Below, one piece after another: positions 3 to 38,022 of a stretch of DNA of 61,147 bases (within the stretch, counting starts at the first letter, position 1; each line of letters opens with the position of its first letter). Location: NCBI GenBank assembly GCA_016929895.1, contig JAFGHW010000048.1:1-61147 (forward strand), in the 5' to 3' direction. Origin of the DNA: Candidatus Woesearchaeota archaeon (GTDB taxonomy: Archaea > Nanobdellota > Nanobdellia > Woesearchaeales > ARS49). The notes below the pieces were generated by a model, which saw nothing but the letters and a program-made list of their open reading frames with translations, had not been told where the DNA came from and did not search any database. The position numbers and the translations under genes are program-made.

Positions 3-791
3 GATATTTTTCATCAATTCGAAACAGATACAACAAAAATAACATTTGGACAATTACAAGATTTAGTTTATAGTCAAGGAACACAAATAGGCAATCCTGG
101 AAATTATTTAGCGCACATTTCTAATACCGCAGGCATATTAAGAAGTTTAGTAATAGTTCTAGACAAAATTCACAAAGGCCAACTAAAATTGCCACATCCA
201 GATATTGCATATGCCATAGGTCTTGTTCATGATTTAAATGCAACTTTTAGTAATTATGCAATTGGTGGACAGCAATCAAAAGAATTTGATGAATTTGTTT
301 TAGCAAAAAAATTAGGATTTAAAAGAATGGCAGATGAAGCAGCAATGCATAGTGATTATTTAGGAGCAATTAATTTGCTGGCTGAGGGAGTTGATTTTCC
401 TAAACAAGAAGCATATATTGGAATGAAACAAATTCTAACGGGAGATGGACCATTAAGTTATCCAAAAATTGAAAGAGAATTTAATAGTTATTTAGAAGGA
501 AAAGACAGATTAAATCTATTATTACTAACTATATCAGATTATACGGAGAAAGGACAGCCACATTTTAATGCAGATAAATTTGATGAAAACTTTGAAGAAA
601 GATCAAAAGATATTATGTGGAGATACCATGGAAAAGCACATTCTCAAGGAAAACTACCATCATTATTAGGACAGGCTTTAGTAAATGGAGGAATGAAAAG
701 AATTGCAATGTATAAAAAAATTGTAAATGTTCTTCTTGAAGCTAATCCAGAAAAAATTGAAAGATTAAAACAAGAAACCAATTTTTTTTAG
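3..791 (+). CDS. HD-domain metal-dependent phosphohydrolase-like protein; 5' end lies outside the window
   Basis: The frame is open from nt 3 to the TAG at 789-791. The track start at 189 is a TTG inside this open frame. A His...His-Asp...Asp pattern (NYLAHISN, GLVHDLN, AMHSDY) is typical of the HD superfamily. Confidence 0.55.
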   Translation, partial: DIFHQFETDTTKITFGQLQDLVYSQGTQIGNPGNYLAHISNTAGILRSLVIVLDKIHKGQLKLPHPDIAYAIGLVHDLNATFSNYAIGGQQSKEFDEFVLAKKLGFKRMADEAAMHSDYLGAINLLAEGVDFPKQEAYIGMKQILTGDGPLSYPKIEREFNSYLEGKDRLNLLLLTISDYTEKGQPHFNADKFDENFEERSKDIMWRYHGKAHSQGKLPSLLGQALVNGGMKRIAMYKKIVNVLLEANPEKIERLKQETNFF

Positions 792-805
792 TTAATTAAT
801 AAAAA

Positions 806-1981
806 ATGATAAACTGCAAAGAATTTTATGACAAATTGAATGAAAAAGGAATAGATTTTTTTGCAGGGGTGCCTGATTCTCTTTTAAAAGATTTTTGTGC
901 TTATATAACTGATAATGCAAAGACAGAAAATCATATAATAACAGCAAATGAAGGCGGAGCAATCGCTCTTGCAACAGGATATTATTTAGCAACAGGAAAA
1001 ATGGTATTAGTTTATATGCAGAATTCAGGACAAGGAAATGCAGTAAATCCATTAATATCTTTAGCAGATTCAGATGTATACAGCATACCTTTATTGATGA
1101 TGGTGGGCTGGAGGGGAGAGCCAGGAAAAAAAGACGAACCACAGCATAAAAAACAAGGAAAAATAACATTAGCTTTGCTAGAAACAATGGGAATAGAATA
1201 TGCGATTCTTCCAGATGACATGGAAGAAGCAGCGAAAATAATAGATTGTGCTGTAACTTACATGGCCGAAAATAATGCGCCGTATGCTCTTATAATTAAA
1301 AAAGGAACATTTGAATCTTATTCTTTGAAAACAGAATTAGAGACTTTCTATGATTTAAACAGAGAACAAGCAATCAAATTAATACTAGATCAATTAAATC
1401 CGAATGATATTGTTATTTCAACAACAGGAAAAACATCAAGAGAACTTTTTGAATACAGAGAAGAATCAAAACAAGGTCATGAAAAAGATTTTTTAACAGT
1501 AGGTTCAATGGGACATGCTTCACAAATTGCTTTAGGAATTGCTTTATCAAAACCTGACAGACAAGTGTATTGTTTTGATGGAGATGGAGCAGTAATAATG
1601 CATACGGGTTCATTGGCGATTATAGGTTCAAAAGCTCCAAAGAACTTTAAGCACGTAGTCTTTAATAATGGAGCGCATGATTCTGTTGGAGGACAGCCAA
1701 CTGTTGGATTTGAAGTAGACTTTCCTGCAATTGCCCAAGCATGCGGGTATCAAAATGTAAAGTCTGCTGAGAAAATAGAAGATATTAAAGAAAAAATTCA
1801 ATTGTTGAAAACATGTGAAGGGCCGGCATTACTTGAAATAAAAATAAACAAAGGCGCAAGAAAAGACTTAGGAAGGCCTACAACAACACCAAAGGACAAT
1901 AAGAAAGCTTTTATGGAGTTTTTAAAGAGGCAGGGTGGGGAAAAATGGAACAGAAGGAATATTTTGGAAATGGCAGAATAA
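806..1981 (+). CDS. ppd: Phosphonopyruvate decarboxylase (thiamine-diphosphate enzyme)
   Basis: 391 aa. It has an N-terminal FFAGVPDSLLKDFCAYI and a TPP motif GDG (nt 1580-1588) ...NN (GDGAVIMHTGS...VFNNGAHDSVGGQ). An Fe-alcohol dehydrogenase follows immediately, as in phosphonate loci. Confidence 0.72.
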   Translation: MINCKEFYDKLNEKGIDFFAGVPDSLLKDFCAYITDNAKTENHIITANEGGAIALATGYYLATGKMVLVYMQNSGQGNAVNPLISLADSDVYSIPLLMMVGWRGEPGKKDEPQHKKQGKITLALLETMGIEYAILPDDMEEAAKIIDCAVTYMAENNAPYALIIKKGTFESYSLKTELETFYDLNREQAIKLILDQLNPNDIVISTTGKTSRELFEYREESKQGHEKDFLTVGSMGHASQIALGIALSKPDRQVYCFDGDGAVIMHTGSLAIIGSKAPKNFKHVVFNNGAHDSVGGQPTVGFEVDFPAIAQACGYQNVKSAEKIEDIKEKIQLLKTCEGPALLEIKINKGARKDLGRPTTTPKDNKKAFMEFLKRQGGEKWNRRNILEMAE

Positions 1982-3087
1982 TACATGTAGAACATGTATT
2001 ACAAGATATTGAAGCTAGAAATATATTTTTAGTAACTGGAAAAAAGTCTTATGAATCCTCAGAAGCAAAATCCAAATTAGATTATCTATTAAGAAGATAT
2101 GATGTTACCAATTTTTCTGATTTTAATGGAAATCCTAATTTAAGAGACATAGAAAAAGGTATTAATTTATTTAACCAAGGGAAATATGATATGGTTATGG
2201 CGGTAGGGGGCGGGCGTGTTATTGATACTGCAAAAGCAATCAATTCTCTTTCGGTTCAATCAAAAAATCCCGAGGAATATATACGCGGAAAAAGAAAAAT
2301 CAAATACAAAGGCAAGCCATTAGTAGCAATACCAACAACAGCAGGCTCTGGAAGCGAAGCAACACATTTTGCGGTAATATACGTTGCTGGAACAAAATAT
2401 TCATTAGCAGATCAATCTATGTTGCCTGATTTTGCTATTATTGATCCTGAATTAACACATAGTTTGCCTAGAAAAATAACTGCAGAATCAGGAATGGATG
2501 CGTTATCACAGGCAATAGAAGCTTATTGGAGCGTAAACTCAACAGAGGAATCACAAAGATATTCGGCGAATACAATATACTTAGTAATGGATAACTTGAT
2601 AGATGCTGTAAATAACCCATCGCCGAAATCTAGAGAAGGTATGGCTTTAGCATCTAATTTAGCAGGAAAAGCAATAAATGAAGCAAAAACAACTGCTCCA
2701 CATGCAATATCTTATCCAATGACTTTTCATTTTAAGGTAGCCCATGGACAAGCAGTTGGACTAACTTTACCCTCTATTTTGTTGTATAATTTTAAAGTAA
2801 CAAATGAAGATTGCATTGATTCTAGAGGCGTAGAATATGTATCTAAAAAAATAGAAGAAATATGTGATTTTCTAGGGGCATCAGGAGAAGCACGCCTTGC
2901 GAAATTTAAATTAACAGAATTAATGCAAAAAATAGGACTTAAAACCCGATTAAGAGATGTGGGGATTTCTACAGAAGAAGATGTAGAAAAAATAGTTGCA
3001 GAAGGATTTAATCTACAGAGAATGAAAAATAACCCACGTTTGATTACTTCAGATGTTTTATGGCACATGTTAATGCAGATTAGATAA
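1945..3087 (+). CDS. Iron-containing alcohol dehydrogenase, phosphonoacetaldehyde-reductase-like (PhpC/FomC type by context)
   Basis: 380 aa. Fe-ADH signatures are GGGRVIDTAKA and PTTAGSGSE, with metal His residues in HAISYPM and HGQAVG. The start overlaps the end of ppd by 37 nt. Confidence 0.7.
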   Translation: MEQKEYFGNGRIIHVEHVLQDIEARNIFLVTGKKSYESSEAKSKLDYLLRRYDVTNFSDFNGNPNLRDIEKGINLFNQGKYDMVMAVGGGRVIDTAKAINSLSVQSKNPEEYIRGKRKIKYKGKPLVAIPTTAGSGSEATHFAVIYVAGTKYSLADQSMLPDFAIIDPELTHSLPRKITAESGMDALSQAIEAYWSVNSTEESQRYSANTIYLVMDNLIDAVNNPSPKSREGMALASNLAGKAINEAKTTAPHAISYPMTFHFKVAHGQAVGLTLPSILLYNFKVTNEDCIDSRGVEYVSKKIEEICDFLGASGEARLAKFKLTELMQKIGLKTRLRDVGISTEEDVEKIVAEGFNLQRMKNNPRLITSDVLWHMLMQIR

Positions 3088-3126
3088 ACGCATGATTTAT
3101 AAACGATTATTAATTTTTACTAATCT

Positions 3127-4605
3127 ATGAGTTACACAAAGAGAGCATTAAGAGGGTCATTGTTTGTATTTATTGCATCAATAATAACCGCTTTTTTAGG
3201 CTATTTTATACGGATAATTCTTGCACGAAATCTAAGTGTAGAAGATTATGGATTGTTTTTTGCAGTGTTTGCCTTTATAAGTTTTTTATTATTTTTTAGA
3301 GACTTAGGGCTAGGAAGCGCCTTAGTAAAACATCTTGCAGAATTCAAAGCGAAGAAAAAATTTAATGCAATAAAAACAGGAATTGTATCAGTATTTTTAT
3401 CCTTATTAATACTATCTGCAATATTTGGAGTTGTGCTTTATCTTTTAGCGCCGTTTCTTGCGCAAAATTATTTTAAAGATGAACGCGCGCTCTATATAAT
3501 ATATTTTTTCATAGCTTATATTCTTTTTAGTGCATTATTCTTGTTTTTAAGAAATATATTCCAAGGTCTGCAAAAAATCAAAACATTTGCATTAATGGAG
3601 CCAATGCGGTTAGGAATTGCTTTGTTGACAATAATCATATTTTTCGCGTTTGAATATTCATTATTCGCGCCTGTTATTGCATATTCTCTATCTTGGCTAG
3701 CGATATTTCTAATATTTCTTCCATTTGCGAGCAGTGCCTTTTCTTTTTTCGGATACCGAATTAAAAATATGAAAAAGGTAACCAAGCAATTATATCTGTT
3801 TGGAATAGCAATAGCTCTTGCGCACATAGGTGCAAAAGTAATCGCAAGAATAGACACGTTAATGTTAACATATTTTACATCGTTGACTGAAGTAGGGATT
3901 TATAATGTAGTCTTGCCAACAGCCCTATTATTTTTATTCTTTAGTGAAGCAATATCCCCTATATTATATCCTCTTGTTTCAGAACTATGGGCGAAAAAAG
4001 ACCAAAAAAAACTTTCAGAAGGGATAAATTTGCTTTATAAGTATTCGTTTGTAATAACAATTCCTGCTTTTTTAACTGTACTAGTTTTTTCTTCATTAAT
4101 TATCAAAATCCTTTTTGGAATAGAATATGTTGCCGGCAGTCTAGCACTTCAAATTTTATTAGTCGGGATATTATTTTTATTAGTTGCTACAATTAATAAT
4201 ACAGTCTTAGCAGCAATAGGAAGACCCGCCGCAGTAACAAAAGCATTTTTAATTGTTGCGGGATTAAATATTTTATTAAATTTATTATTAATTCCAATGC
4301 TGGGAATAAATGGGGCGGCAATAGCAACTGCTATCAGTTATCTTGCACTATTGTTGATATCAACAATTTTTGTTGCGAGATATATTCATTTTAAGTTTCC
4401 TTTATTTGCCTGGGCAAAAACATTTCTAATTGGACTGGTTTTCTTATTTATTGCTTTTGCAATGAAAATAGTATTAGCCACAAATATATGGATAGAGCTA
4501 ATAATAACGGTATTTTTAGCAGGACTTATTTATTTGATTTTAGCATATTTACTTAGATTGATAGATATAAAAGAATTGAAAAAATACTTAAAAAAAGCAA
4601 TTTAA
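3127..4605 (+). CDS. Wzx/MOP-superfamily oligosaccharide flippase
   Basis: 492 aa, hydrophobic throughout with roughly 12-14 helices. It shows the polysaccharide-biosynthesis-protein pattern, including a C-terminal GINGAAIATAISY. Confidence 0.72.
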   Translation: MSYTKRALRGSLFVFIASIITAFLGYFIRIILARNLSVEDYGLFFAVFAFISFLLFFRDLGLGSALVKHLAEFKAKKKFNAIKTGIVSVFLSLLILSAIFGVVLYLLAPFLAQNYFKDERALYIIYFFIAYILFSALFLFLRNIFQGLQKIKTFALMEPMRLGIALLTIIIFFAFEYSLFAPVIAYSLSWLAIFLIFLPFASSAFSFFGYRIKNMKKVTKQLYLFGIAIALAHIGAKVIARIDTLMLTYFTSLTEVGIYNVVLPTALLFLFFSEAISPILYPLVSELWAKKDQKKLSEGINLLYKYSFVITIPAFLTVLVFSSLIIKILFGIEYVAGSLALQILLVGILFLLVATINNTVLAAIGRPAAVTKAFLIVAGLNILLNLLLIPMLGINGAAIATAISYLALLLISTIFVARYIHFKFPLFAWAKTFLIGLVFLFIAFAMKIVLATNIWIELIITVFLAGLIYLILAYLLRLIDIKELKKYLKKAI

Positions 4606-5291
4606 ATTCGAAATCTTAAAAAAAGCAATTGAAAAAAAATCTTAACAACATCAATTGTCTTCATATTAGAATCATTCTGATGCGTCCATTTAATTGCCAC
4701 TTCTTTATAGGATACTTTGTGTTTTTTGATTCTGTGAAAAAGCTCGACATCAAAAATCCAACGCTCTGATTTAAGATTACTAAATAATTTTCTAGCAATA
4801 TCTGTTCTAAAGCCTTTGAATCCACAAAGATAATCTGAAAACGATGTCTGAAATAAAATGCTGACGTAATTATTAAATCCAAAACTCAAAATTCTTCTTG
4901 TAAAGTCCTTTTCTACTTTTGATTCCTTGAGATTTCTACTTCCCACAACAACATCATATTTATTAAATAAAGAAAGCATTTTTGAAATCTCTTTTGGGGC
5001 GGTAGCCCCATCAGCATCTATAAATAAAAGATGGCTACCGGTTGCTGCAGATACACCTGTTCTTACTGCATTTGCCTTGCCTTTATTTGGCGTATACGAA
5101 ATAATTCTTAAATTTTTATACTTCATATCTTTAAGAATATCCAAACTCCTGTCTTTAGAACCGTCATTAACTGCAATAATCTCATATTTCTTAAGATTCT
5201 TTACACAGTATTCATTTAAATCTTTAAAAAAAGAAGACATTCTGCCTTCTTCATTGTATACCGGAATAATAATCGAAATTTTACTAATCAT
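4602..5291 (-). CDS. GT2 polyprenyl/dolichyl-phosphate glycosyltransferase
   Basis: 229 aa. GT-A motifs are IIIPVYNEE, NDGSKDRS and FIDADG (DxD). It overlaps the upstream GT-C gene by 8 nt. Confidence 0.85.
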   Translation of the reverse strand: MISKISIIIPVYNEEGRMSSFFKDLNEYCVKNLKKYEIIAVNDGSKDRSLDILKDMKYKNLRIISYTPNKGKANAVRTGVSAATGSHLLFIDADGATAPKEISKMLSLFNKYDVVVGSRNLKESKVEKDFTRRILSFGFNNYVSILFQTSFSDYLCGFKGFRTDIARKLFSNLKSERWIFDVELFHRIKKHKVSYKEVAIKWTHQNDSNMKTIDVVKIFFQLLFLRFRI

Positions 5292-6936
5292 TTTTAATCC
5301 AATAATATTCTATTTTTCCTCGCTTGATATCGTAAGTCTTCTTTAACAATGGACGCCTGGTTTCAATCTCGCTCATATTAAACTTTCCTCCCTTTTTTAA
5401 GAGCATTTGAATTGGCGCAAATTTGTCTTCTTGTTTGATGAGGCCAATCAAATCTATTTTATAATTACCCGAGATGTATTCAAACATTTCATTATTGTTT
5501 TTAAAGTTATTGAATTGGCTCATATCAATATAAACAAAATCAATATTAAAAACTTTTTCCTTATACTTAAAGTCAGTAAGATTTCCGGCGCCGCCACAGC
5601 TTCTTTTTGCATAGGAACAAACAGCCATTCCCTGAGAATGTGTAAATGCTATAATTCTATCGCCCCATTCTGTTTGCTTTTGGATATATTCGCCGATTAC
5701 ATCTTGTCCATAAAAATTAGTATCCCATACGCGATTATTTGCAGCTTGAACACTGCCTATAGCAAAGAGCAGAATTATCAAGGGAGCGAACTGTAATATT
5801 TTTATTTTGGTAATTCGTTTTAGAAGTAAACCGCAAGTATAGAAAAAATATGCCGCCGAAATACAAACCAATGGCAGAAAAGGCATTTGATAATAACTGT
5901 GGCCGGCAAATTTGCTTGAAATAATCATAACATACGGAACGAATGCCAAAAGGTAGCCAATCATAAATCTTGCAAATTTAGTTTTATACTTTACCGCCGC
6001 AAAAATAATGCCGACAAATGCAAACCAAAAAAACCACCAAGTATAATTATCGGCAATGTACGATTTGATAGCGGGAATTCTTGTAATCCAGTACTCAGAT
6101 CCAAAAACTCTAAATAAATCAACACTGTAATTGCTCTTAGATGCATCCAGCATAGTCACTTCAAATAATAAATTTAAAAAAATACATGGCAAAAAACCCA
6201 AAAAACCATACAATGCGCTGTAAAAGAAGTTTTTTCTTTTTTCTCTAAGCATTGCAAGAATTTTATAATACGGAAAAACAAATACAAAAGGAACAAGAAT
6301 TATAAGGTATGTGGCTTTGAAACAGCCTGCAATACCTACCGCTAGCATAGACCAAAATGCAAATTTTAATTTCAATATTTCAGTCCATTTCAAGTAAAGC
6401 AAACTTCCCAGTAAAATAAAGAACAAAGCAGGAGATTCTGGCTGAATATTTCTTCCAAAATAAATTCCTAAAGGCATAAATGATAAAAAAAATGAACTTA
6501 ATAAAGAAAGATATTCATTATTAGTCAATTGTTTTACAATATAATATAATAAAATTATGGAACCTGTCATAAAACAAATCATTGCAAGACGAGGCAGCCA
6601 TAGATTAATCCCAAAAATTTTCCAAAAAACAAAAATAATATATGAAACCATAGGAACCTGGCTGTATTCCTCGTGATATGGAATAACTCCTTTTTCTCCG
6701 TGAGTTAATTCATCCAGACCATAGAAAGCAAAAGCCCTTTTGTGCAAAAAATTACCTTCTCTATAGAAATTATATGCGGGATCGAGATATTCATTCTCTT
6801 TCATATTATGATAGCCGATAGAAGGAAAATTAATATTGTATACTCTTAAATAAAATCCGAAAAGAAGAAATATTATAAGAAATACATAAGTCAAATTAAT
6901 ACTTTTATCGCTTATTTTGATATACCACATATACAC
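5284..6936 (-). CDS. GT-C fold membrane glycosyltransferase (PMT_2/ArnT-like)
   Basis: 550 aa with many TM helices followed by a C-terminal soluble domain. The first loop is acidic (HNMKENEYLDPAYNFY). It is co-oriented with, and overlaps, the GT2 gene downstream. Confidence 0.6.
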   Translation of the reverse strand: MYMWYIKISDKSINLTYVFLIIFLLFGFYLRVYNINFPSIGYHNMKENEYLDPAYNFYREGNFLHKRAFAFYGLDELTHGEKGVIPYHEEYSQVPMVSYIIFVFWKIFGINLWLPRLAMICFMTGSIILLYYIVKQLTNNEYLSLLSSFFLSFMPLGIYFGRNIQPESPALFFILLGSLLYLKWTEILKLKFAFWSMLAVGIAGCFKATYLIILVPFVFVFPYYKILAMLREKRKNFFYSALYGFLGFLPCIFLNLLFEVTMLDASKSNYSVDLFRVFGSEYWITRIPAIKSYIADNYTWWFFWFAFVGIIFAAVKYKTKFARFMIGYLLAFVPYVMIISSKFAGHSYYQMPFLPLVCISAAYFFYTCGLLLKRITKIKILQFAPLIILLFAIGSVQAANNRVWDTNFYGQDVIGEYIQKQTEWGDRIIAFTHSQGMAVCSYAKRSCGGAGNLTDFKYKEKVFNIDFVYIDMSQFNNFKNNNEMFEYISGNYKIDLIGLIKQEDKFAPIQMLLKKGGKFNMSEIETRRPLLKKTYDIKRGKIEYYWIKND

Positions 6937-7026: not shown

Positions 7027-8334
7027 ATGAAAATAACAAAAGAAGTTCATAGAGTTCTCAGATTAATTGCCAGCAAAAAAATAGACTATGTAGTGATACG
7101 CAACTTTGAAAGAATACTTCAAAATAAGCCTTATCAGGAAAAGGATGTAGATATTCTTATCGGGTCAGATAATAAAAGAAAAGTCATACGTTTATTATCA
7201 AATCAAGGATTTACTAAATTATTGTTATGTCCCTCGGCGGGACATTATGGATTTGTTAAGTACACAAATGGAAAATTTTTATCATTTCATCTTCATACCG
7301 GAGGAGTATCCGGCGCAAATATATTTTATCTGGATTCTAACTCAATATTTGAAAGACGAAAACAAGTTAAAGAAATATATGTGCCTTCAAAAGAAGATCA
7401 GATTCTTATACTTTTATTGCATTCATTTCTTGATTCGCATGAAATCAAACAAAAATATCGCGAAAAAATAAATAGTCTGCTTAAAAAACAATTAGACTGG
7501 GATTATTTAAACAAAAAATTAATCGAACAATCTAATTACGCCTTTTCAAATAAAATATTAGGCTACCTTAAAACTAAAAAATATAAAAAACTAGAAAAAT
7601 TGAGATCAAAATTTAGAAAACAGTTCTATTACTATAATTTAAATAGAAGTTTGGGAATATTAAAAACAAAAATACATATGTATTTCTGGGCGGTATATCG
7701 TTTATTTAGAAATGCTCCTTTACTTAGTTTTATAGGCATGGACGGAACAGGCAAAACAACCATGGCAAAACTCTTAAAATATAGGTTAGATAACAGCTTG
7801 ATAACAAATACTTTGATTTATACTGGTCGAGGGAGAAATAATCTTCTTCCAATACAATTTTTTGGCAGAAGATATATACGAATAACGAATAAACCACAAA
7901 AAAACAATAAAAAAATAAATTTTACTAATAAAAATAGTATTTTTACAAAAATAATGCACACTCTTGCTGCGCCAATATTTGCATTTGACTTATTTTTAAG
8001 ATATTGGATAACAATATGGCCCAAAAGAAAAACTACACAAATTGTTATAACAGATAGGTATTCAACAGATATCCTCCTCATGGCTCATGTGCCTATGTTT
8101 TTCAAAAAAATAATGTTCTTATTTTTTCCAAAGCCATCCTTAACTATATACTTGTATAATCATCCAAAAGAGCTTCATAAACGAAAAAAAGAGCATCCAA
8201 TAAATGATTTATACCGGCAGAAAAAATTATTTTTGAATATAAACAAAAAAGTCAAATCAATCAAAATTAAATCGGATAACGTCGATAAAACATTAAATAA
8301 GATATCTAAACTTATGTCAGACATCTTTTTTTAA
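7027..8334 (+). CDS. Fusion protein: nucleotidyltransferase-like N-terminal region plus thymidylate-kinase-like P-loop kinase domain
   Basis: 435 aa. The N-terminal part has DVDILIGSD. The C-terminal part has a Walker A FIGMDGTGKTT and ITDRYSTD (a DRY-type motif). Confidence 0.5.
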   Translation: MKITKEVHRVLRLIASKKIDYVVIRNFERILQNKPYQEKDVDILIGSDNKRKVIRLLSNQGFTKLLLCPSAGHYGFVKYTNGKFLSFHLHTGGVSGANIFYLDSNSIFERRKQVKEIYVPSKEDQILILLLHSFLDSHEIKQKYREKINSLLKKQLDWDYLNKKLIEQSNYAFSNKILGYLKTKKYKKLEKLRSKFRKQFYYYNLNRSLGILKTKIHMYFWAVYRLFRNAPLLSFIGMDGTGKTTMAKLLKYRLDNSLITNTLIYTGRGRNNLLPIQFFGRRYIRITNKPQKNNKKINFTNKNSIFTKIMHTLAAPIFAFDLFLRYWITIWPKRKTTQIVITDRYSTDILLMAHVPMFFKKIMFLFFPKPSLTIYLYNHPKELHKRKKEHPINDLYRQKKLFLNINKKVKSIKIKSDNVDKTLNKISKLMSDIFF

Positions 8335-9511: not shown

Positions 9512-11062
9512 TTAAACTGGTAAATAACAATTTTTATTACTTCTTAAACTTATCCATGACTCTATTTTAATGCCGGTTAATATTGCCAGTAGAGCCATTT
9601 TAAGAATAAAACTGTGAGTTTTATTCATGACAAATACCTGATTATAAATATCATTCCAAAAAGCATACTTGCCGTATTTAATTTCATTTAAACCTAGATT
9701 GAACAATAAAGTTTTTATTCCTTTTTTCTTGCAAAACTCTAAAATACTTATGTAATGAAAAAAATCAGAATTGTTTACAACAAATAATATGAAATCAAAA
9801 TCTTGATGTTTATTTTTTATTTTTTTAGCGCATAACACGCGCACTTTATTGTTTTTTGATAATTTATCTTTTAGATATCGGATTAATATCTTGTTTGAAA
9901 AATTGTATATCCCTATTTTGTTATTTTTTAATTTACTCAATTTTGATCTTTTGTATAAATAATCAATACCTGTTATAATATGGCCGCGAGATTCTTTTTC
10001 TACTTTTCTTAAAAAGTTTTTAAATTTTTTATATTGTTTTTTTTCATACAGCGATGGGTGTTTTATATGAATTTCTTTGCCCTTCTTTAATTTATAAAAG
10101 TTAGTTCTTTTTTCTCCGCGAATTAGCTTATAGAATTTGTTTCGTATAGAGGTTTGATTATAATTCTGTAGTAAATATCGGGTATCTGAACGAATTAAGC
10201 GGTTATTCGCCTTTTTAATAATTTTTTGATCATTTTTTTCTATAAGATCTTTGAAAGAAATAGCCCTTTTTGGAATATTTCCTATTTTTATGTTCCTGTT
10301 TATATTTAAATAGTCTAGAACAGTCTCAAAAATATCAATCACGCAAACAGGATTGTTGATTACTTTATGTTTTATATTGGATATTGATTTAGGAAGATGA
10401 ATAACTAAATTTGTTTTTAAAGTATCCTCGTCAACATAAAGAGAATGAACTTTTGGGTGCAGAAGCCAGCCTAAATAATGAAATTTACCGTAATCGATAT
10501 AACCGTGATCTGAAGACAGAATAAAAATAGAATCATCATATAATCTTTTATCTTTTAAGAAATTCACAATATCCGAAACTAATTTATCTCCATTTTCGTA
10601 AAAACCGGCATGGCAAAAGATGAAGTTTGGCTTTTTTTTATCCCAGTTATTGTTAACTAAAAATTTAAATTCTTCGAACATTTCATCATGATTGAACCAT
10701 TTTGTTCTATCTTTAATCTGCCGGGCGTTAATCTCATCTTGAAAATAAAGACGATTTGTATTATAAAACACCTGACTTTGGACATTATACCCTGCTTTTT
10801 TGAATCTTCTGAAATAATTATCTTCTTTGAATCGATGATTACTGAAATCAAAAAAACAAGGAAATAATCCATAAGCAAATCTGCCGGTTATTATCCCTGC
10901 AAAAGACATCAGAGTAGATGATGCTGAAGTTATAACTTCCTTAAAACTTATGTTTTCTTTTCCTAATGTATCAAAAGCCTTTAACCTAGAATGCATATCC
11001 TTGCCTGGCTTTGCTCTGTTGCCGTCCACAAGCACACAAAAAACATTAGGTTGTTTTTTCAT
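9512..11062 (-). CDS. Alkaline-phosphatase-superfamily (sulfatase-like) enzyme, apparently cytoplasmic, with an extra lysine-rich C-terminal half
   Basis: 516 aa. It has an N-terminal VLVDGNRAK (metal Asp), TSASSTLMSFAGIITGR (candidate Ser/Thr nucleophile region) and ILSSDHGY. There is no signal peptide or TM helix, and no C/S-x-P/A-x-R formylglycine motif. Confidence 0.55.
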   Translation of the reverse strand: MKKQPNVFCVLVDGNRAKPGKDMHSRLKAFDTLGKENISFKEVITSASSTLMSFAGIITGRFAYGLFPCFFDFSNHRFKEDNYFRRFKKAGYNVQSQVFYNTNRLYFQDEINARQIKDRTKWFNHDEMFEEFKFLVNNNWDKKKPNFIFCHAGFYENGDKLVSDIVNFLKDKRLYDDSIFILSSDHGYIDYGKFHYLGWLLHPKVHSLYVDEDTLKTNLVIHLPKSISNIKHKVINNPVCVIDIFETVLDYLNINRNIKIGNIPKRAISFKDLIEKNDQKIIKKANNRLIRSDTRYLLQNYNQTSIRNKFYKLIRGEKRTNFYKLKKGKEIHIKHPSLYEKKQYKKFKNFLRKVEKESRGHIITGIDYLYKRSKLSKLKNNKIGIYNFSNKILIRYLKDKLSKNNKVRVLCAKKIKNKHQDFDFILFVVNNSDFFHYISILEFCKKKGIKTLLFNLGLNEIKYGKYAFWNDIYNQVFVMNKTHSFILKMALLAILTGIKIESWISLRSNKNCYLPV

Positions 11063-13747: not shown

Positions 13748-13821
13748 ATATTTTTGATAAAATAAGCAATAAGAATTTATAGTCCAAAAGATTTAAATAG
13801 GCCAAATTAACCTTTTGTTTG

Positions 13822-15267
13822 ATGAAATTTAAAAGAATTCTGTTAATAGTACCTCCTTTTCCAGGTGTTAATCAAGGAAAAAATGTGCTCTTATTGGGGG
13901 TTGGGTATATTTCTCAATATTTGTTAGATAATGGTATACAAAATACGGTTTTTGATATGCGTCTTGGATATTCTGTAAAAGATCTTAAAAAAATAATTTT
14001 AGAATATCGACCGGACTTAATAGGCATGCAGATAATGACATATCGGCATGACATTGCATATGATATCATAAATGAGATTGTAGGCGGAAATTATAAGATT
14101 GTTCTTGGAGGGCACCACGTCTCTACTATTGATGCAGAGATACTCCGACAAACAAAAGCAGATTTTGCTATACGAATGGAAGGAGAAGATGCAATGCTAG
14201 AATTATGCCAAGGAAAACCTTATGAAACAATAAAAAATCTGATTTACCGTAAAGATGGCAAAATAATACAAAATTCTTTGCGTCCGTTTATAGAAGATCT
14301 TGATAGACTAACTTTTCCAAGATACGAACGCTTTGAATTATCAAAATACGATGAGCAATTACCAATTACAACTTCAAGAGGATGCCCGTTTCAATGTATT
14401 TACTGTCCTTGCGCAGCTACTATTGGTCGGCTATTCCGCGTTAGAAGCCCAGAAGATGTAATTAAAGAACTTAATTATTGGTATCATAAAGGTCATAAAA
14501 GATTTGCTTTTGTAGATGATAATTTCACACTCTTCCCGGAAAGAGTTCATAAATTATGCAGGTTAATAGAAAAAAATTGTTTGAAAGATTTAGATATTTA
14601 TTGTCAGGGAATACGCGCAGATAAAGTAAATCTAGAGCTTCTTAAAACTATGAGAAAAGCTGGATTTAGCCAATTAGGAATTGGCGTTGAAGTTGGCAAT
14701 GATAAAATGTTAAAAATAATTAAAAAGGGAGAAAAAAGAGAACACATAGAACAAGCTGCACAATGGGCTATTGAAGTAGGGTTTGATGTTCAATTTTATT
14801 GTATGATTGGTCTTCCGTACGAAACTGTTCAAGATGTGGAGGAGACTTTTCAACTTGCTTTAAAATTCCCAATAGCCGATGTTCATTTTCATAATGTTAT
14901 CCCTTTTCCAAAAACAGAACTTTATGAATGGGTTAAAAAAAATAATTACTCAATCGGCGATCTTGATAAATCTCTTATTGATAGAGAGCATTTTTCAAGA
15001 CAACCTTTTTTTGAAACACCAGAACTTCCTGCAAAAGAAAGAATACGCCTTCTTAAAAAAGCGCAAAAAATCGAGAAAATAGTTTTAAAACATTATTTTA
15101 CTCGTAAAATGACGCCTTCTTTTGGAAGATTTTCTGGCCTTCTAGCATTTTTTTTCTTTTTTGGTCCGATACATAAATTAGTAACTATAACTTTCCAAAC
15201 TAAAATGGGAAAATTTTTTATTAGAACTTTTTTAGATAAATACCATATAGACGTTCATTATTATTGA
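13822..15267 (+). CDS. B12-binding-domain radical SAM enzyme (class B)
   Basis: The N-terminal part looks like a cobalamin-binding domain (ILLIVPPFPG...LGVGYISQYL). CPFQCIYC lies at nt 14383-14406. The ATG at 13822 is preferred over the track TTG at 13819. Confidence 0.85.
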   Translation: MKFKRILLIVPPFPGVNQGKNVLLLGVGYISQYLLDNGIQNTVFDMRLGYSVKDLKKIILEYRPDLIGMQIMTYRHDIAYDIINEIVGGNYKIVLGGHHVSTIDAEILRQTKADFAIRMEGEDAMLELCQGKPYETIKNLIYRKDGKIIQNSLRPFIEDLDRLTFPRYERFELSKYDEQLPITTSRGCPFQCIYCPCAATIGRLFRVRSPEDVIKELNYWYHKGHKRFAFVDDNFTLFPERVHKLCRLIEKNCLKDLDIYCQGIRADKVNLELLKTMRKAGFSQLGIGVEVGNDKMLKIIKKGEKREHIEQAAQWAIEVGFDVQFYCMIGLPYETVQDVEETFQLALKFPIADVHFHNVIPFPKTELYEWVKKNNYSIGDLDKSLIDREHFSRQPFFETPELPAKERIRLLKKAQKIEKIVLKHYFTRKMTPSFGRFSGLLAFFFFFGPIHKLVTITFQTKMGKFFIRTFLDKYHIDVHYY

Positions 15268-21141: not shown

Positions 21142-22509
21142 ATGTTTTTAAAATTCGAAAAATTTATAAATAACCTTGAAGTGTTTTATTTACCCGAGGA
21201 AGGAGACTATAAGCACAATGTAGGTATTAGAATGGATAAACAGCCAAAAATTGCGTTGATACAGCCTGATAGCCCTTTTTTAACATGCCCTCTTGCTTTT
21301 CCAAATCTTGGTTTAATTTATATTTCATCGTATCTTAGAAAGAATGGCATGTCCAATGTAGAATTTTATGATTTAACAGGGGGCGGAAAACTTCCAGACA
21401 ACCTCCGGGCAGATATTTTTGGTTTTTCTTCTCAAATAACCCAATTTGAAAACGTTGTTGAAATAAGCAAACAACTTAGGAAGAATAATCCGAATTCGCT
21501 TTTTGTCATAGGGGGGCCATTCTCAAGCCACAGCCCTAAAATTTGTTTGAATGCGGGTTTTGATATAGCTGTGATAGGAGAAGGCGAGATTGCTTTTTTA
21601 CAAATCATAAAGGAGTTCCCAAACGCAAGAAAAGGAGAGCATATTTCAAAAACATTTGTAGACCCAAATGGTTTATTTCCTGATTGGGATGCAATAAATC
21701 CATTAAGATATAAATACCAATTAGAAGGAAAACGATGCGTAAACATAATGACAAAAAGAGGAAATTGCCCGTATCACTGCACTTTCTGCGCAAAATCTGA
21801 GGCAGGAAAAAGCCCATTGAGATTCAGAAGTGTTAATGATGTACTGGATGAAGTAAAATACCTAAAAAACAAATATGGATTTGGTTCTATTGCAATTTAC
21901 GATGATGATGTTCTTATAGACAAAAAAAGAGATATGGAAATATTCGGGGGATTAAAGCAGCTAGGAATGCCTTACAGATGTATGACCCGAGCGAATCTAG
22001 CGACAAGAGACGATTTAAAATATCTTAAAGAAACAGGATGTGCTGAAATTTGTGTTGGGATTGAAACAGCAGATCCTTTCATACACGAAAAAGTAATAAG
22101 AAAAGGCACAACAATAGAGCAAAGTACAGAGTTTATCAGAAACTGCAAGGAGTTAGGGCTTAGGGTTAAAGCCTTTCTTATGATAGGATTACCGAGCGAA
22201 AGCAGAGAAACAGTTGAAAAAACAAAACAATGGCTAAAATCTGTAAAACCAGATAACTTTGACATATCTGTATTTACACCATATCCTGGTTCTGATATTT
22301 ATGAGCACAAAGACAACTACGAGATTGATTGGGACGAAAATTATTTAAAGACAATCTGGTTTTCAGGAGAAGCACAATACGGTCGCTGTGCTGTAAGAAC
22401 ACCTTATCTTTCTTCAGATGAAATTCTGAAATTAAAGAACGAGATAGAACAGGAGTTTGGTAGAAAAGAAGGAGGCGCCACTGATTATTGGGGGCCCTTA
22501 AAAGAATAA
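21142..22509 (+). CDS. B12-binding-domain radical SAM enzyme (class B)
   Basis: The B12-like domain reads KIALIQPDSP...LGLIYISSYL. CPYHCTFC lies at nt 21766-21789. The true start may be the internal ATG near 21232 (MDKQPKIALIQ). Confidence 0.85.
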   Translation: MFLKFEKFINNLEVFYLPEEGDYKHNVGIRMDKQPKIALIQPDSPFLTCPLAFPNLGLIYISSYLRKNGMSNVEFYDLTGGGKLPDNLRADIFGFSSQITQFENVVEISKQLRKNNPNSLFVIGGPFSSHSPKICLNAGFDIAVIGEGEIAFLQIIKEFPNARKGEHISKTFVDPNGLFPDWDAINPLRYKYQLEGKRCVNIMTKRGNCPYHCTFCAKSEAGKSPLRFRSVNDVLDEVKYLKNKYGFGSIAIYDDDVLIDKKRDMEIFGGLKQLGMPYRCMTRANLATRDDLKYLKETGCAEICVGIETADPFIHEKVIRKGTTIEQSTEFIRNCKELGLRVKAFLMIGLPSESRETVEKTKQWLKSVKPDNFDISVFTPYPGSDIYEHKDNYEIDWDENYLKTIWFSGEAQYGRCAVRTPYLSSDEILKLKNEIEQEFGRKEGGATDYWGPLKE

Positions 22510-31846: not shown

Positions 31847-33295
31847 ATGAGCGATGTGGTCTTAGTATATCCGATACCTACTAATGAACAAACTGAAACA
31901 ATGGGGCCTCCTTTGTCAATTTTGTATTTAGGTTCTTTTCTTGAAGATAAAGGATTTATTGTAGATTATTATGATGAACGAATATCACCAGTAGGTGTTT
32001 TAAAAGATTATTTGCGCGAAAAACCGCTTTTAATTGCAGTTTCTTCTATGACAGGATACCAACTTTTGGGAGCGCGAAGATCTTTGCAATTAGCAAAAGA
32101 AATAGCACCCGAAACTAAAACTATCTTAGGCGGAGTTCATGCTTCTTTAGTAGCTGAGCAATGTTTAAAAGAATCGTATGTTGACTTTGTATGTATCGGT
32201 GAAGGAGAGCTTACATTATTGGAACTTACTAAAATGCTAAAAGAAGGAAAACACGTTATGCATTCTATTTCAGGCTTAGGTTGGAAAGATCAAAATAATC
32301 GAGTTTTTATAAATAAAAAGAGAGATTTTATGGATTTAGATCAATCTGTGGCGCCGATAACAAAAAAATCTGCACCGTTATATGAGCATTATCCTTGGAA
32401 AAAAGTTCAAATATCCCGTGGATGCCCGCATCGGTGTGTATTTTGTTATAATACATATTTTAATGAGAGAAGATATCGCATCAAGTCAATTGATAAAATT
32501 GAAGAAGAATTAAAAGTATTAAAAGATTTTTTCCCTTCTATGAAACAAGTAACTCTTTTGAGCGATAATATTGGAAGAAACAAGACAAGAGTAAAAGCCA
32601 TTTCAGAACTCATGAAATCTTATAATTTTAAATGGCATACTGGTATTCGTTCTGAATATATTGACCAGGAAATGATAGATATTTTAGAATCTTCCTGCGA
32701 TTCTCTTTTTTTAGGAGTAGAAAGTGCTTCTCCTAGAATTATTAAATTTATTAATAAAGATAATACATCTGAAGATGCTTTGAATGCGGCAAAAATTATT
32801 TCTAAATCTTCGATAAAGCCGTATTATTCTTTTATGACTGGTTTTCCTGATGAAACAAAAGAAGAAATTCTTGCTTCGATGGATTTAGCCGATAAAATCC
32901 AAAAGATTGATCCGAAATCAATAATAACACCATTTTTTATATTCACTGCTTTTCCAGGAACAGAACTTTATAAATTTGCTTTAACATATGAAGGATATAC
33001 TAGTCCTAATAGTTTTGATGAATGGTCAAGTTTCAGTTTAAATCAAGTTAGTATGCCTTGGATGGATAAGAAGACAAGTAATTTAGCTTTGAATCTCTAT
33101 TATATCTCCATGCTTCTTTATCTAGAAGAAAAAGATTATTCAAGAACAAAATTTGAGAAGGCCTTTTTTAACTTTTTAAAATCCCGCGCAAGACAAAAAT
33201 GGCAAAATAGAGACTTCAATTTTGATATAGAAAGAGAGTTATTTACTAAATATAACGAAGATGTAAAAGTAAAACAACTTTCAAAAAAACTATAA
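31847..33295 (+). CDS. B12-binding-domain radical SAM enzyme (class B)
   Basis: 482 aa. The B12-like domain reads VVLVYPIP...LSILYLGSFL. CPHRCVFC lies at nt 32423-32446. A GGAGGGG sequence lies at 31831-31837. Confidence 0.85.
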   Translation: MSDVVLVYPIPTNEQTETMGPPLSILYLGSFLEDKGFIVDYYDERISPVGVLKDYLREKPLLIAVSSMTGYQLLGARRSLQLAKEIAPETKTILGGVHASLVAEQCLKESYVDFVCIGEGELTLLELTKMLKEGKHVMHSISGLGWKDQNNRVFINKKRDFMDLDQSVAPITKKSAPLYEHYPWKKVQISRGCPHRCVFCYNTYFNERRYRIKSIDKIEEELKVLKDFFPSMKQVTLLSDNIGRNKTRVKAISELMKSYNFKWHTGIRSEYIDQEMIDILESSCDSLFLGVESASPRIIKFINKDNTSEDALNAAKIISKSSIKPYYSFMTGFPDETKEEILASMDLADKIQKIDPKSIITPFFIFTAFPGTELYKFALTYEGYTSPNSFDEWSSFSLNQVSMPWMDKKTSNLALNLYYISMLLYLEEKDYSRTKFEKAFFNFLKSRARQKWQNRDFNFDIERELFTKYNEDVKVKQLSKKL

Positions 33296-33296
33296 A

Positions 33297-34754
33297 ATGA
33301 ATAAATCACAGTTTTTTTGGAGGTCTAATTTGAAAAAAAGAAAAGTTTTATTATTCAACCCCCCCGGCGCAAAAAGATATAATAGAGATACTTTCTGTAG
33401 CGGCACAACCAAGGGAAAATATTCGTGGCCACCACAAGATCTTCTGTGTTTGAGCGGAATCTTGTATGGGAAACACGATATTATAGTATTAGACGCCACA
33501 GTAGATATGATGGCAAAGGACGTATGTCTAAATAAAATAAAAGAGATGGATATCGACACTTTAATTTTTCTTACAGGAGTAGCATCATGGAAGGAAGATT
33601 CCGAATTTGTTAAAAAGATAAAAGAAATAAAAAAAGATTTAGATGTTATTGGAATAGGAGGATTTTTCTTGGCTATGGGCACAAAAATAATGAATGAAAA
33701 TCAATTTTTAAATGCCATATTGATGGATTTTACTTCTAATAATATTTTAACATATTTAGAAGGACCGACAGGAAAAATAGATAATATAATTTATAGAAGA
33801 AATAATGAGATAACAAATGGAGGAATCGTCCCCCCGAGTGGTATAACGTTCGCCTATCCCATCCCAAGACATGAAATGTTTCCAATAACAAGATATAAAC
33901 TACCCATAATTAAAAAACATCCATTTACAAACATTCTTTTTTCCTTAGGATGTGTTAATAAATGTAAATTTTGTCCTTATGGCGAAGGAAGCAAGATTCC
34001 TTATACTTTCAGAGACGTGGAAAATACTATAGAAGAAATGAAGTACATAAAATCATTAGGAATAAATGAAATAAGATTTATGGATTACAGTATTTCAATA
34101 AATAAACCGAATCTTAAAAAATTATGCGAAAGAATGATAGAAGAAAAATTCAACTTCACATGGCACGCCCTATCAAAAGTAACTGAGGTTGATGAAGAAT
34201 CACTTTCATTAATGAAAAAATCGGGATGCAAAACATTATTATTTGGTGTTGAAAATGGAGATCAAAGAATACTTGATATGTACGCAAAAGGAATAACTCT
34301 TGAAAGAATAAAATATATATTTGGAGTATGCAAAAAGCTAAAAATAGATACTCTGGCACATTTTATCATTGCTTTGCCTGGAGAGGATGAAGCTTCTGTC
34401 AATAAAACAATTGATTTCAGCATTGAATTAGATCCTGATTATGCTAATTTTTCAGTAGCGGCCCCTTATGTAGGAACTGCAATGCGTAAGGAAGCGATTG
34501 AAAAAGGATGGATTGACAAAAGATTTGAGAATGATATATTCTCTGATGCAGCACAATATCCCATAATGGAAACCGAAAAACTTACAAAAGAGCAGGTTTG
34601 GAAGTTGAAAAATAAAGCAGTAAGAAAATTCTTCTTTAGACCATCATATATATTAAAACGATTTATAAGAATAAGATCTTTAGACGATTTTATAGTACAG
34701 GCAAAAGTAGGTATATCGCTTATTCAAAATATGAAAAAAGCCGTATTTAAGTAA
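33297..34754 (+). CDS. B12-binding-domain radical SAM enzyme (class B), second of a tandem pair
   Basis: 485 aa with KVLLFNPPG...PPQDLLCLSGIL. CVNKCKFC lies at nt 33951-33974. The ATG lies 1 nt after the preceding stop. Confidence 0.8.
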   Translation: MNKSQFFWRSNLKKRKVLLFNPPGAKRYNRDTFCSGTTKGKYSWPPQDLLCLSGILYGKHDIIVLDATVDMMAKDVCLNKIKEMDIDTLIFLTGVASWKEDSEFVKKIKEIKKDLDVIGIGGFFLAMGTKIMNENQFLNAILMDFTSNNILTYLEGPTGKIDNIIYRRNNEITNGGIVPPSGITFAYPIPRHEMFPITRYKLPIIKKHPFTNILFSLGCVNKCKFCPYGEGSKIPYTFRDVENTIEEMKYIKSLGINEIRFMDYSISINKPNLKKLCERMIEEKFNFTWHALSKVTEVDEESLSLMKKSGCKTLLFGVENGDQRILDMYAKGITLERIKYIFGVCKKLKIDTLAHFIIALPGEDEASVNKTIDFSIELDPDYANFSVAAPYVGTAMRKEAIEKGWIDKRFENDIFSDAAQYPIMETEKLTKEQVWKLKNKAVRKFFFRPSYILKRFIRIRSLDDFIVQAKVGISLIQNMKKAVFK

Positions 34755-37023: not shown

Positions 37024-38022
37024 ATGAAAATAACCATACGTTCAAAATTTTTGAACATAATAAGAGATTGGATATCTTCGCGATTAGCTAAGAACATAAT
37101 CACTAAAAAAATATTTTATTCAAAACCAATTACTAATAAGAAATGGGATCTTTTTTCTATAGAATTAACTAATCATTGTCCAATGAAGTGTGATGTTTGC
37201 CCAAGAACCAACAATATGACTCGGCCTTTAGGGTTCATGGATTTTTCATTGTTTAAAAAAATAATAGACCAAGCAAGCGAGAAAATAAATTCTGTGTGGC
37301 TTCATCAATTTGGAGACAGTTTAGTACATCCCGAATTTAAAGAATTTATTATTTATGCTCAAAACAAAGGAATCAAAACAAAATTATCTACAAATGCAAT
37401 ACTCTTAAATGAAGTTACATCTAAAAAATTGATAGAATCCGGCTTAGACAGACTGATTATTTCTTTGGATTCTACTGATGAAGAAAGTCAGACCAAAACT
37501 AGAGGAGTTCCTGGGATTTACAAAAAATCTGTTGAAAACGTTAAAAAGTTCTTAGAAGTAAGAAAATGCGCAGGGTCTAAAAAACCCAACACTATTTTAC
37601 AGATGATTGAATATGAATATACAAAAAATTTAGTTCCAATTTTTATAAATCAATGGAAAAATAATAGCGATCTGGATGAAATCTCGATTGGTACTTTTGT
37701 AAATTGGAACGGAGGAGTCGATAGAATCAATAACTACACAAAAAAATTAAGTTTATTACTGAGATTTGTTAAAAAATTCAATAAAAAGAAATCCCGATAT
37801 AATTGTTGTCATTTCCCATGGAGATCTTTATCTATTCTTTGGGATGGCACTGTTGTTCCTTGCTGTTTTGATTATGATGGTTTATATGTTTTAGGAAATG
37901 TTAAAGATCAGTCTCTTGATGAAATATGGAATGGAGAGAAAATGCAGGCTTTAAGAAATGAATTTATTCATAATAAAGTAACAAATAAATTATGCTCCAC
38001 TTGCCGCGGTAGATTTATATAA
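37024..38022 (+). CDS. Radical SAM enzyme with C-terminal SPASM-like Cys-rich domain
   Basis: 332 aa. CPMKCDVC lies at nt 37177-37200. The C-terminal cysteines are CCHFPW...VPCCFDYDG...CSTCRG. Confidence 0.8.
   Translation: MKITIRSKFLNIIRDWISSRLAKNIITKKIFYSKPITNKKWDLFSIELTNHCPMKCDVCPRTNNMTRPLGFMDFSLFKKIIDQASEKINSVWLHQFGDSLVHPEFKEFIIYAQNKGIKTKLSTNAILLNEVTSKKLIESGLDRLIISLDSTDEESQTKTRGVPGIYKKSVENVKKFLEVRKCAGSKKPNTILQMIEYEYTKNLVPIFINQWKNNSDLDEISIGTFVNWNGGVDRINNYTKKLSLLLRFVKKFNKKKSRYNCCHFPWRSLSILWDGTVVPCCFDYDGLYVLGNVKDQSLDEIWNGEKMQALRNEFIHNKVTNKLCSTCRGRFI

Follow-up and report, generated by a model that had tools for sequence, protein, structure and literature searches.

A candidate cassette for CMP-2-hydroxyethylphosphonate synthesis at the edge of a glycan locus in an apparently archaeal contig

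The contig JAFGHW010000048.1, analysed here over its complete NCBI length of 61,147 nt (the window), begins within a co-directional gene cluster that most likely makes CMP-2-hydroxyethylphosphonate (CMP-HEP; CMP, cytidine monophosphate) and that ends on a gene for a Wzx flippase, at the edge of a glycan locus. Our full model, in which this CMP-HEP cassette serves to decorate a surface glycan, is given a probability of roughly 0.7. The steps that would lead from phosphoenolpyruvate (PEP) to CMP-HEP are supported by the families of the enzymes, by diagnostic residues and by synteny that is conserved; that HEP is then passed to a glycan is inferred from context, i.e., from the Wzx gene that follows and from the glycosyltransferase/AglB locus. 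The cassette represents a known type of pathway in a new host group, plus one uncharacterised conserved gene (gene X).

Because the window is the whole NCBI contig, the 5' truncation of its first open reading frame (ORF) is an assembly edge. An exact look-up of the phosphonopyruvate decarboxylase (Ppd) protein retrieved a contig of the Logan assembly (SRR13394437; L001, related loci being numbered likewise) that shares 11,981 nt with the window at 0 mismatches and runs 1,616 nt further left. The cluster comprises five genes, all on the + strand, with gaps of 19, 14, -37 and 39 nt:

L001:151-1449 (outside the window), + strand: cytidylyltransferase-PEP mutase fusion (CT-Ppm), 432 aa
3-791, + strand: gene X, C-terminal part, open from base 3, 262 codons, 5'-truncated (full length 312 aa at L001:1469-2407, with PEP mutase 5' and Ppd 3' of it)
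806-1981, + strand: Ppd, 391 aa
1945-3087, + strand: alcohol dehydrogenase (ADH) of PhpC type, 380 aa, with a 37-nt overlap with the Ppd ORF
3127-4605, + strand: Wzx/MOP flippase, 492 aa, final gene of the cluster

A TTTAAATA box, which may be an archaeal TATA box, lies 24-31 nt 5' of the first ATG of the cluster. The window has a GC content of 31%, and tRNA and Rfam scans found no rRNA or tRNA in it. Its four ORFs of the cluster stand exactly where a preliminary description of this DNA had placed them, and the arrangement reported there was recovered in full: a truncated ORF, cut at the contig edge, precedes Ppd, the Ppd ORF is overlapped by that of an Fe-ADH family protein (by 37 nt), and a polytopic flippase (PF01943) follows the ADH.

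From PEP to CMP-HEP

The EDKxxxxxNS motif, which separates PEP mutase (Ppm) from its isocitrate-lyase-like relatives, has no match in any of the six frames of the window. The preliminary description had predicted a PEP mutase bearing this motif, and a cytidylyltransferase, just upstream; both are present on L001, as one fused gene in the product of which a CTP_transf_like domain (N-terminal) precedes a PEP_mutase domain (C-terminal). The mutase domain reaches 418.2 bits on the equivalog model TIGR02320 (cutoff 319.55), the score on the phosphonopyruvate hydrolase model is 152.6 (cutoff 374.4), and the motif is found at residue 259 as EDKIGLKKNS. The cytidylyltransferase domain (PF01467, residues 9-131) is identical to PDB 5x3d_A at 91 of 134 positions (67.9%, 210.8 bits). 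The 160-aa chain of 5x3d bears the depositors' name 'PEP phosphomutase'; we take it to be the HEP-specific CyTase domain of Fom1, and the 68% identity therefore supports HEP, not 2-aminoethylphosphonate (AEP), as the activated phosphonate. An example of a PF01467-Ppm fusion is Fom1, the enzyme that turns HEP into CMP-HEP (PMC6697681).

In the second enzyme, the thiamine pyrophosphate (TPP) domains TPP_enzyme_N (PF02776) and TPP_enzyme_C (PF02775) occur in a single chain, and residues 15-373 match positions 1-360 of the 360 positions of the Ppd model TIGR03297 with 519.5 bits (cutoff 312.5). The TPP motif GDG-x25-NN starts at residue 259 (GDGAVIMHTGSLAIIGSKAPKNFKHVVFNN). Models of the related sulfopyruvate decarboxylase ComDE (the TIGR03845/TIGR03846 pair) remained below their cutoffs (alpha, 98.1 vs 147.95; beta, 126.5 vs 221.5), as did those of acetolactate synthase (35-61 bits vs cutoffs of 363-1084). 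The CT-Ppm gene lies two genes 5' of Ppd on L001 and is co-encoded in all related cassettes, the Ppd proteins of which are 52-78% identical to that of the window. Judged by these scores, ORF 806-1981 is a Ppd, converting phosphonopyruvate into phosphonoacetaldehyde and CO2, and the choice that the preliminary description had made among Ppd, ComDE and acetolactate synthase was the right one.

The third enzyme has the Pfam domains Fe-ADH and ADH_Fe_C and is predicted to be a phosphonoacetaldehyde reductase of PhpC type (group III of the 'Fe-ADH' family) that yields HEP. Its closest relatives with a name share 52-55% identity with it; they are annotated at NCBI as 'phosphonoacetaldehyde reductase' and come from metagenome-assembled genomes (MAGs) of Ca. 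Aenigmarchaeota, Pacearchaeota, Nanoarchaeota and Woesearchaeota, all of them DPANN archaea. PhpC binds HEP through Lys157, Thr256, Tyr264 and Arg349 (PMC13576164, 2026), and the residues Lys151, Thr249 and Tyr257 of the window protein have the same spacing from the metal ligands as the first three of these. Among 121 aligned relatives Lys151 and Tyr257 are invariant and Thr249 is found in 119; two arginines are conserved nearly as well (R359 in 120/121, R365 in 119/121), the placement of the clamp arginine being uncertain. The tyrosine, four residues past the first histidine ligand, is a hallmark of PhpC, where it forms a hydrogen bond with the phosphonate; sulfoacetaldehyde reductases have a phenylalanine there (PMC13576164), and Tyr257 indeed aligns with the phenylalanine of sulfoacetaldehyde reductase 6jko. 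This tyrosine and the names of the DPANN relatives bear out the PhpC/FomC assignment of the preliminary description over a sulfoacetaldehyde reductase. The metal site (D185/Q189/H253/H267) departs from this pattern: its D-x3-Q is found in all 121 close relatives, and the Asp/Gln/His/His set binds Zn in sulfoacetaldehyde reductase, the site of PhpC being Asp/His/His/His with D-x3-H (PMC13576164). The clade, as far as its alignment tells, mixes PhpC-type and sulfoacetaldehyde-reductase-type features.

Position supports the same assignment, synteny with pepM/aepY having served as the criterion for phpC in an earlier survey (PMC9381506). The ADH gene is directly 3' of Ppd in the window and in L002, L008, L017 and L019, and in L005 and L021 the two are separated by a single nucleotidyltransferase gene. 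One of the ADH relatives is a cytidylyltransferase-ADH fusion from a Nanoarchaeota-labelled locus (L020:9001-10569).

These data leave little for a reading in which a ComDE-like enzyme and a sulfoacetaldehyde reductase would make isethionate or precursors of coenzyme M. Ppd and ComDE are homologous, and the closest solved structure to the ADH is 6jko/6jkp, a sulfoacetaldehyde reductase with the same Asp/Gln/His/His site (PMC13576164). However, the ComDE models stay below cutoff and TIGR03297 is far above it, a PEP mutase above the TIGR02320 cutoff is encoded two genes 5' of Ppd, and the ADH has the tyrosine, not the phenylalanine of sulfoacetaldehyde reductases (PMC13576164), and scores 126 bits on the SarD model against a cutoff of 700. 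By these comparisons the coenzyme M reading is effectively refuted.

The flippase matches PF01943 (Polysacc_synt) with 90.7 bits (gathering threshold 28.2), as well as Polysacc_synt_3 and MurJ, and has hydrophobic segments along its whole length of 492 aa. It is 79% identical over 138 aa to the product of a partial gene that follows the cassette where the Woesearchaeota contig L008 ends. In favour of a surface glycan, a MOP flippase gene occurs close to the cassette in each of five independent loci (the window, L002, L008, L017 and L019). The nearest cassette, 67-79% identical, was found in a Ca. Woesearchaeota MAG; with the AglB gene of the window and the wholly DPANN set of named ADH relatives, this makes a DPANN-type archaeon the probable host.

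In the proposed pathway, the PEP mutase domain would convert PEP into phosphonopyruvate, Ppd would decarboxylate it to phosphonoacetaldehyde and so pull the unfavourable mutase equilibrium forward, the ADH would reduce phosphonoacetaldehyde to HEP, and the Fom1-like cytidylyltransferase domain would join HEP and cytidine triphosphate (CTP) into CMP-HEP. A transferase would then attach the HEP group to a glycan, either lipid-linked or still nascent, which Wzx would flip and the glycosyltransferase/AglB machinery would display on the surface of an uncultivated, probably DPANN-type (Woesearchaeota-like) archaeon.

A conserved gene of remote HD likeness

Gene X is the uncharacterised member of the cassette. 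It has no match in Pfam (even at E<=10), NCBIfam or PDB sequences, and its family is rare: a search of 5.8 billion sequences gave 15 matching clusters, and an exhaustive hidden Markov model (HMM) scan of 1.84 billion representatives gave 40 matches. Most members are nameless, those bearing names are all called 'hypothetical protein', and when the 5.8-billion-sequence set was searched once more with a profile, nothing but further entries of that name appeared. Further loci with X came from scans of GTDB (one) and of JGI metagenomes (two); the IMG/VR scan contained none.

The likeness to HD-domain proteins emerges at the level of the family. An alignment of 38 members, down to 24% identity, has the invariant residues H88, G123, H126, D127, H166, Y188 and L222, and Q140, Y169, D229, R250, R283 and Y287 are conserved in at least 90% of them, which amounts to an H...HD...H...D pattern. 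Six of the 38 members weakly match PF01966 (best E 2.8e-4), the window protein itself being below the Pfam HD threshold. The 18 best PDB matches of the family profile are all of SAMHD1/dGTPase type (E = 0.07-0.8), on the H...HD segment and in register, and an hhalign comparison of the profile with one HD protein was non-significant, again with H...HD in register. The HD phosphohydrolases (SAMHD1/dGTPase, YqeK and 3ccg) thus share H...HD...H and the near-invariant aspartate with X, all matches to them being sub-significant. An AlphaFold (AF2) model built with a 15-sequence alignment for a homologue 67% identical to X of the window is all-alpha (pLDDT 95). Foldseek found no match to it below E = 0.3 in PDB and BFVD; the HD hydrolases 3ccg and YqeK (with 8wmy listed beside 3ccg) appear low in the list (probability 0.20-0.25, TM 0.24-0.37). 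The top matches, nuclear-receptor ligand domains, were dismissed as spurious all-alpha similarity. We also rejected, on the alignment alone, a diiron oxygenase of PhnZ type: the PhnZ, TmpB and MIOX sites have four histidines and two aspartates (H-HD-H-H-D), whereas X has three invariant histidines (H88, H126 and H166) and no conserved fourth. PhnZ and TmpB belong to phosphonate catabolism; a role of X would be biosynthetic. X is probably remotely HD-like by its conserved residues. The preliminary description had called it a truncated HD-domain gene; the truncation stands, and the HD label is the weakest point of that description, resting on family-level evidence for a protein whose own sequence matches nothing.

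A PEP mutase gene adjoins X in seven of the nine distinct contexts examined. The order CT-Ppm/X/Ppd/ADH occurs in the window, in the Woesearchaeota MAG, in two marine lineages and in a lineage in which X is about 30% identical; in L021 the order is LicD, B12-binding radical SAM (rSAM; SAM, S-adenosylmethionine), CT-Ppm, X, Ppd, NTP_transferase and Fe-ADH. X follows a Ppm-NTP_transf_3 fusion in two further loci that lack adjacent Ppd and ADH genes. The short contigs L011 and L012 have X with no PEP mutase in view, and a Woesearchaeota cassette without X exists. X thus appears to be an accessory that goes with the mutase/nucleotidyltransferase pair, and not a core step of the pathway.

One of the two loci with the Ppm-NTP_transf_3 fusion, L015:1724-4976, has X (44% identical) 3' of this fusion and directly followed by genes for nucleoside diphosphate kinase and CTP synthase, with no Ppd or ADH gene within 8 kb; this arrangement suggests that X is connected with the supply of CTP.

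As to function, we tentatively suspect a metal-dependent phosphohydrolase, divergent and HD-like, that acts on a cytidine nucleotide or on CMP-phosphonate, an assignment that is itself doubtful. It is rather improbable, in our estimate, that X founds a structurally distinct HD-like family with an undescribed phosphonate-tailoring step. If it did, X might, e.g., hydrolyse or remodel CMP-phosphonate or an intermediate derived from phosphonopyruvate, or couple to the mutase; the surface group of X-bearing cassettes would then not be plain HEP, and the reaction would be new to phosphonate biochemistry.

Branch points, acceptors and rival products

Phosphonoacetaldehyde and HEP are both branch points, and the window was searched for the enzymes of the other branches. 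The preliminary description had noted that no aminotransferase adjoins Ppd and the ADH, and the nearest ones are in fact at least 14 kb away: four sugar aminotransferases of DegT type (at 17501, 22488, 29584 on the - strand, and 40013), with no Aminotran_5/PhnW type among the aminotransferases of the window. The AEP branch was rejected, no AEP transaminase being present in the window. The methylphosphonate branch was likewise rejected; Pfam scans, and tblastn with a cupin-like protein of L020, detected no MpnS/HEPD bicupin gene in the window. Because MpnS is absent, HEP and not methylphosphonate is expected as the product.

The query from L020, a 421-aa protein (L020:11626-12891), is encoded two genes 3' of the CT-ADH fusion, has a faint cupin signal and is possibly HEPD/MpnS-like; no NCBIfam model matched it. 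The L020 locus is flanked by two membrane-anchored sulfatase-family genes.

Several points weigh against the proposed decoration of a glycan with HEP. Neither LicD (PF04991) nor a CDP-alcohol phosphotransferase (PF01066) nor a TagF-like protein (PF04464) was detected in the window by Pfam scans or by tblastn with proteins of related loci, and with no recognised phosphonyl transferase in the 61 kb the decoration step has no gene. Four B12-radical SAM genes of the window could alter the phosphonate before transfer. The PEP mutase gene was read from the second assembly (L001), not from the window itself. The best NCBIfam model of the ADH, TIGR03405 (Phn_Fe-ADH), is below its cutoff (206.8 vs 423.7), and its D-x3-Q is that of sulfoacetaldehyde reductase, not the D-x3-H of PhpC (PMC13576164). 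X has no place among the proposed steps, and in a sister lineage X (L021:8581-9468, and L022 at the same coordinates) has an in-frame TGA (SNYA*GGQESKE). This copy also has D168V and Q141E at positions invariant among close homologues, its neighbour genes are intact, and the sequence is identical in the NCBI and the Logan assembly; X is either decaying in this lineage, or the stop is recoded.

Related cassettes carry other downstream enzymes (LicD, a CDP-alcohol phosphotransferase or a TagF-like protein), and because these differ among cassettes the acceptor is probably lineage-specific. A CDP-alcohol phosphotransferase gene 3' of the cassette, as found in L002/L014 and L017/L018, is a further point against a glycan as acceptor, for it fits a phosphonolipid, in which HEP, donated by CMP-HEP, would be the head group of an archaeol-type lipid; a UbiA prenyltransferase gene upstream in a Woesearchaeota locus points the same way. 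In the window itself, however, there is no CDP-OH_P_transf gene, and the cassette precedes Wzx inside a glycosyltransferase/AglB locus, so that we regard a lipid as an improbable acceptor here.

The radical SAM genes bear on another reading, in which HEP is an intermediate only: a B12-rSAM enzyme would methylate CMP-HEP, either on carbon (Fom3-like, giving 2-hydroxypropylphosphonate) or on phosphorus (PhpK/Sden_1168-like, giving a phosphinate), and the methylated group would decorate the glycan. Five radical SAM genes lie in the window (13819-15267 on the + strand, 21142-22509, 31847-33295, 33297-34754 and 37024-38022). Three have a recognisable B12-binding domain (in 13819-15267, PF04055 with PF02310), 33297-34754 matches B12-rSAM models only below cutoff, and one of the five is of SPASM type; none reaches any NCBIfam cutoff. 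Besides the presence of four B12-radical SAM genes, methylation is favoured by X-bearing L005 and L021, where a B12-rSAM gene is directly 5' of CT-Ppm, the best match of the L005 enzyme being the Sden_1168 P-methyltransferase model (350.7 bits, below the cutoff of 575). Fom1-type cytidylylation, moreover, reportedly serves Fom3 in fosfomycin biosynthesis. The genes of the window, however, are 11-32 kb off, among glycosyltransferases and sugar aminotransferases, are about 25% identical to the L005 gene that adjoins CT-Ppm (33% to that of L019), and reach only 61-128 bits with the P-methyltransferase models of PhpK and Sden_1168 (cutoffs 575-600). They may equally methylate sugars. These enzymes are possible methylases of HEP, CMP-HEP or sugars, and we consider a methylated decoration unlikely.

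In L005 itself, a marine X-bearing cassette, the B12-rSAM gene occupies L005:7281-8693, and its best match hints at a phosphinate (C-P-C) product in this lineage. Genes for serine hydroxymethyltransferase and 5-formyltetrahydrofolate cyclo-ligase are also present in the L005 cluster.

The early steps are those of Fom1, Fom2 and FomC, the transferase domain shares 68% identity with 5x3d, and X could act as the CMP-phosphonate hydrolase FomD, all of which would suit a diffusible natural product of phosphonate type, whether similar to fosfomycin or not, with Wzx and the glycan genes as mere neighbours. Against this, Pfam scans of the window revealed no HppE/Fom4, kinase, resistance, peptide ligase or exporter genes, the cassette is part of a polysaccharide locus and has a MOP flippase gene close by in the window, L002, L008, L017 and L019, and the host is probably a small-genome DPANN archaeon; such a product is very improbable. 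We retain a glycan decorated with HEP as the preferred outcome.

Three known systems are close to this one. Fom1/Fom2/FomC of the Streptomyces fosfomycin pathway comprise the same PF01467-Ppm fusion, Ppd and group III ADH, leading to HEP and CMP-HEP (PMC6697681), and differ in that the cassette described here lies in an archaeal glycan locus with Wzx and AglB, has an extra HD-like gene between ppm and ppd, and has no Fom3, Fom4 or FomD orthologues adjacent to it; cytidylylation is transient in fosfomycin synthesis and is presumed to be donor activation here. The phosphonoglycan clusters of Stackebrandtia nassauensis and Glycomyces and the methylphosphonate cluster of Nitrosopumilus maritimus have the same ppm-ppd-phpC core, surrounded by genes for glycosyltransferases, nucleotidyltransferases and 'sulfatases', and both the HEP exopolysaccharide of Stackebrandtia and the methylphosphonate polysaccharide of Nitrosopumilus bear the phosphonate as an ester (PMC8942020, PMC9381506). 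Their hosts are Actinobacteria and Thaumarchaeota, whereas the present one is DPANN-like and its product is a predicted one. The PntC/LicD tailoring of bacterial surfaces with AEP has the same kind of nucleotidyltransferase-Ppm fusion, CMP-phosphonate donor and surface destination (Rice et al. 2019, PMC6697681); here, in contrast, the nucleotidyltransferase is PF01467 (Fom1 type) and not PF12804 (PntC type), an ADH replaces the AEP transaminase, and the window has no LicD.

The HEP branch makes up 8.5% of the ppm neighbourhoods surveyed (PMC8942020), and the pepM/aepY/phpC trio is already known in Thaumarchaeota (PMC9381506). The novelty that the preliminary description implied is therefore reduced: HEP glycans are known in bacteria, the trio in Thaumarchaeota, and DPANN orthologues already bear NCBI names. 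Within the searchable library, no publication was encountered that deals with phosphonates of DPANN archaea or with an HD-like gene as part of a ppm cassette.

The core chemistry is that of textbooks, and a known theme is extended, not overturned. Phosphonates account for a sizeable share of marine and sediment phosphorus, and most of the producers recognised so far belong to the bacteria or the Thaumarchaeota. Seen beside its numerous DPANN orthologues, the cassette suggests that episymbiotic archaea with small genomes, too, invest phosphorus in decorating their surface with C-P compounds, which would bear on host attachment, phosphatase resistance and the phosphorus cycling of their habitats. 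The unannotated HD-like gene beside PEP mutase is a target for new enzymology.

The surrounding glycan locus

The remaining 56 kb encode glycosyltransferases of families GT1, GT2, GT4 and GT9, GDP-mannose dehydratase, epimerases, DegT aminotransferases, methyltransferases and PMT_2-type glycosyltransferases. The following features deserve mention (strands are given where they were recorded):

4602-5291, - strand: GT2 glycosyltransferase, polyprenyl-phosphate sugar synthase-like (PF00535, 103.5 bits; ArnC, AglJ and Dol-P-hexose models sub-cutoff)
5284-6936, - strand: polytopic membrane glycosyltransferase, PMT_2/Agl23-like (PF13231, 40.7 bits; TIGR03663 (Agl23) weak)
7027-8334: 435-aa protein with an N-terminal NTP_transf_5 (polymerase-beta-like) and a C-terminal P-loop, thymidylate-kinase-like part
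9512-11062, - strand: alkaline-phosphatase/'sulfatase' superfamily protein (PF00884, 44.2 bits, partial match)
41071-42075 and 44582-45721, - strand: GT9 heptosyltransferase-family genes of an ADP-heptose-like module
42172-43527: PfkB kinase-cupin fusion of the same module
43520-44107: HAD phosphatase of the same module
44100-44585: small cytidylyl/adenylyltransferase of the same module
46755-49880, - strand: AglB/STT3 fused to a C-terminal FKBP, 1041 aa (PF02516, 122.9 bits; PF21436; PF00254, 72.2 bits; Archaeo_STT3 weak)
58473-61031: 852-aa protein with several Ig-like domains

Three proteins of this locus may take part in the later steps. The best candidate for a phosphonyl transferase, or an esterase, is the soluble 'sulfatase' superfamily protein at 9512-11062, in which neither a formylglycine C/S-x-P-x-R motif nor a transmembrane segment was found. 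Sulfatase-family genes also flank HEP cassettes in the DPANN loci L019 and L020, and in marine genomes 'Arylsulfatase A' genes adjoin pepM/aepY/phpC/mpnS (PMC9381506). The protein at 7027-8334 is possibly an activating or transfer enzyme, and the related cassette loci contain no counterpart of it. The GT2 enzyme at 4602-5291 possibly builds the lipid-linked acceptor. A PMT_2 gene is near the cassette in L019 too.

The oligosaccharyltransferase AglB/STT3 identifies the locus as archaeal-type machinery for the glycosylation of proteins. Its fusion to an FKBP-type peptidyl-prolyl isomerase is, to our knowledge, unusual, and would unite a catalyst of folding and the glycosylating enzyme in one protein.

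The ADP-heptose-like module (41071-45721) is a separate observation in this apparently archaeal contig, GT9 and heptose pathways being typically bacterial lipopolysaccharide functions.

Towards the right end, the region 53668-61031 has a strong positive AT skew (0.26-0.36). The ORFs 53668-54795, 54805-56379 and 57169-58428 in it have no Pfam match, and they are followed by the 852-aa protein with Ig-like domains; the proteins of this region are probably secreted or surface proteins and possibly targets of glycosylation.

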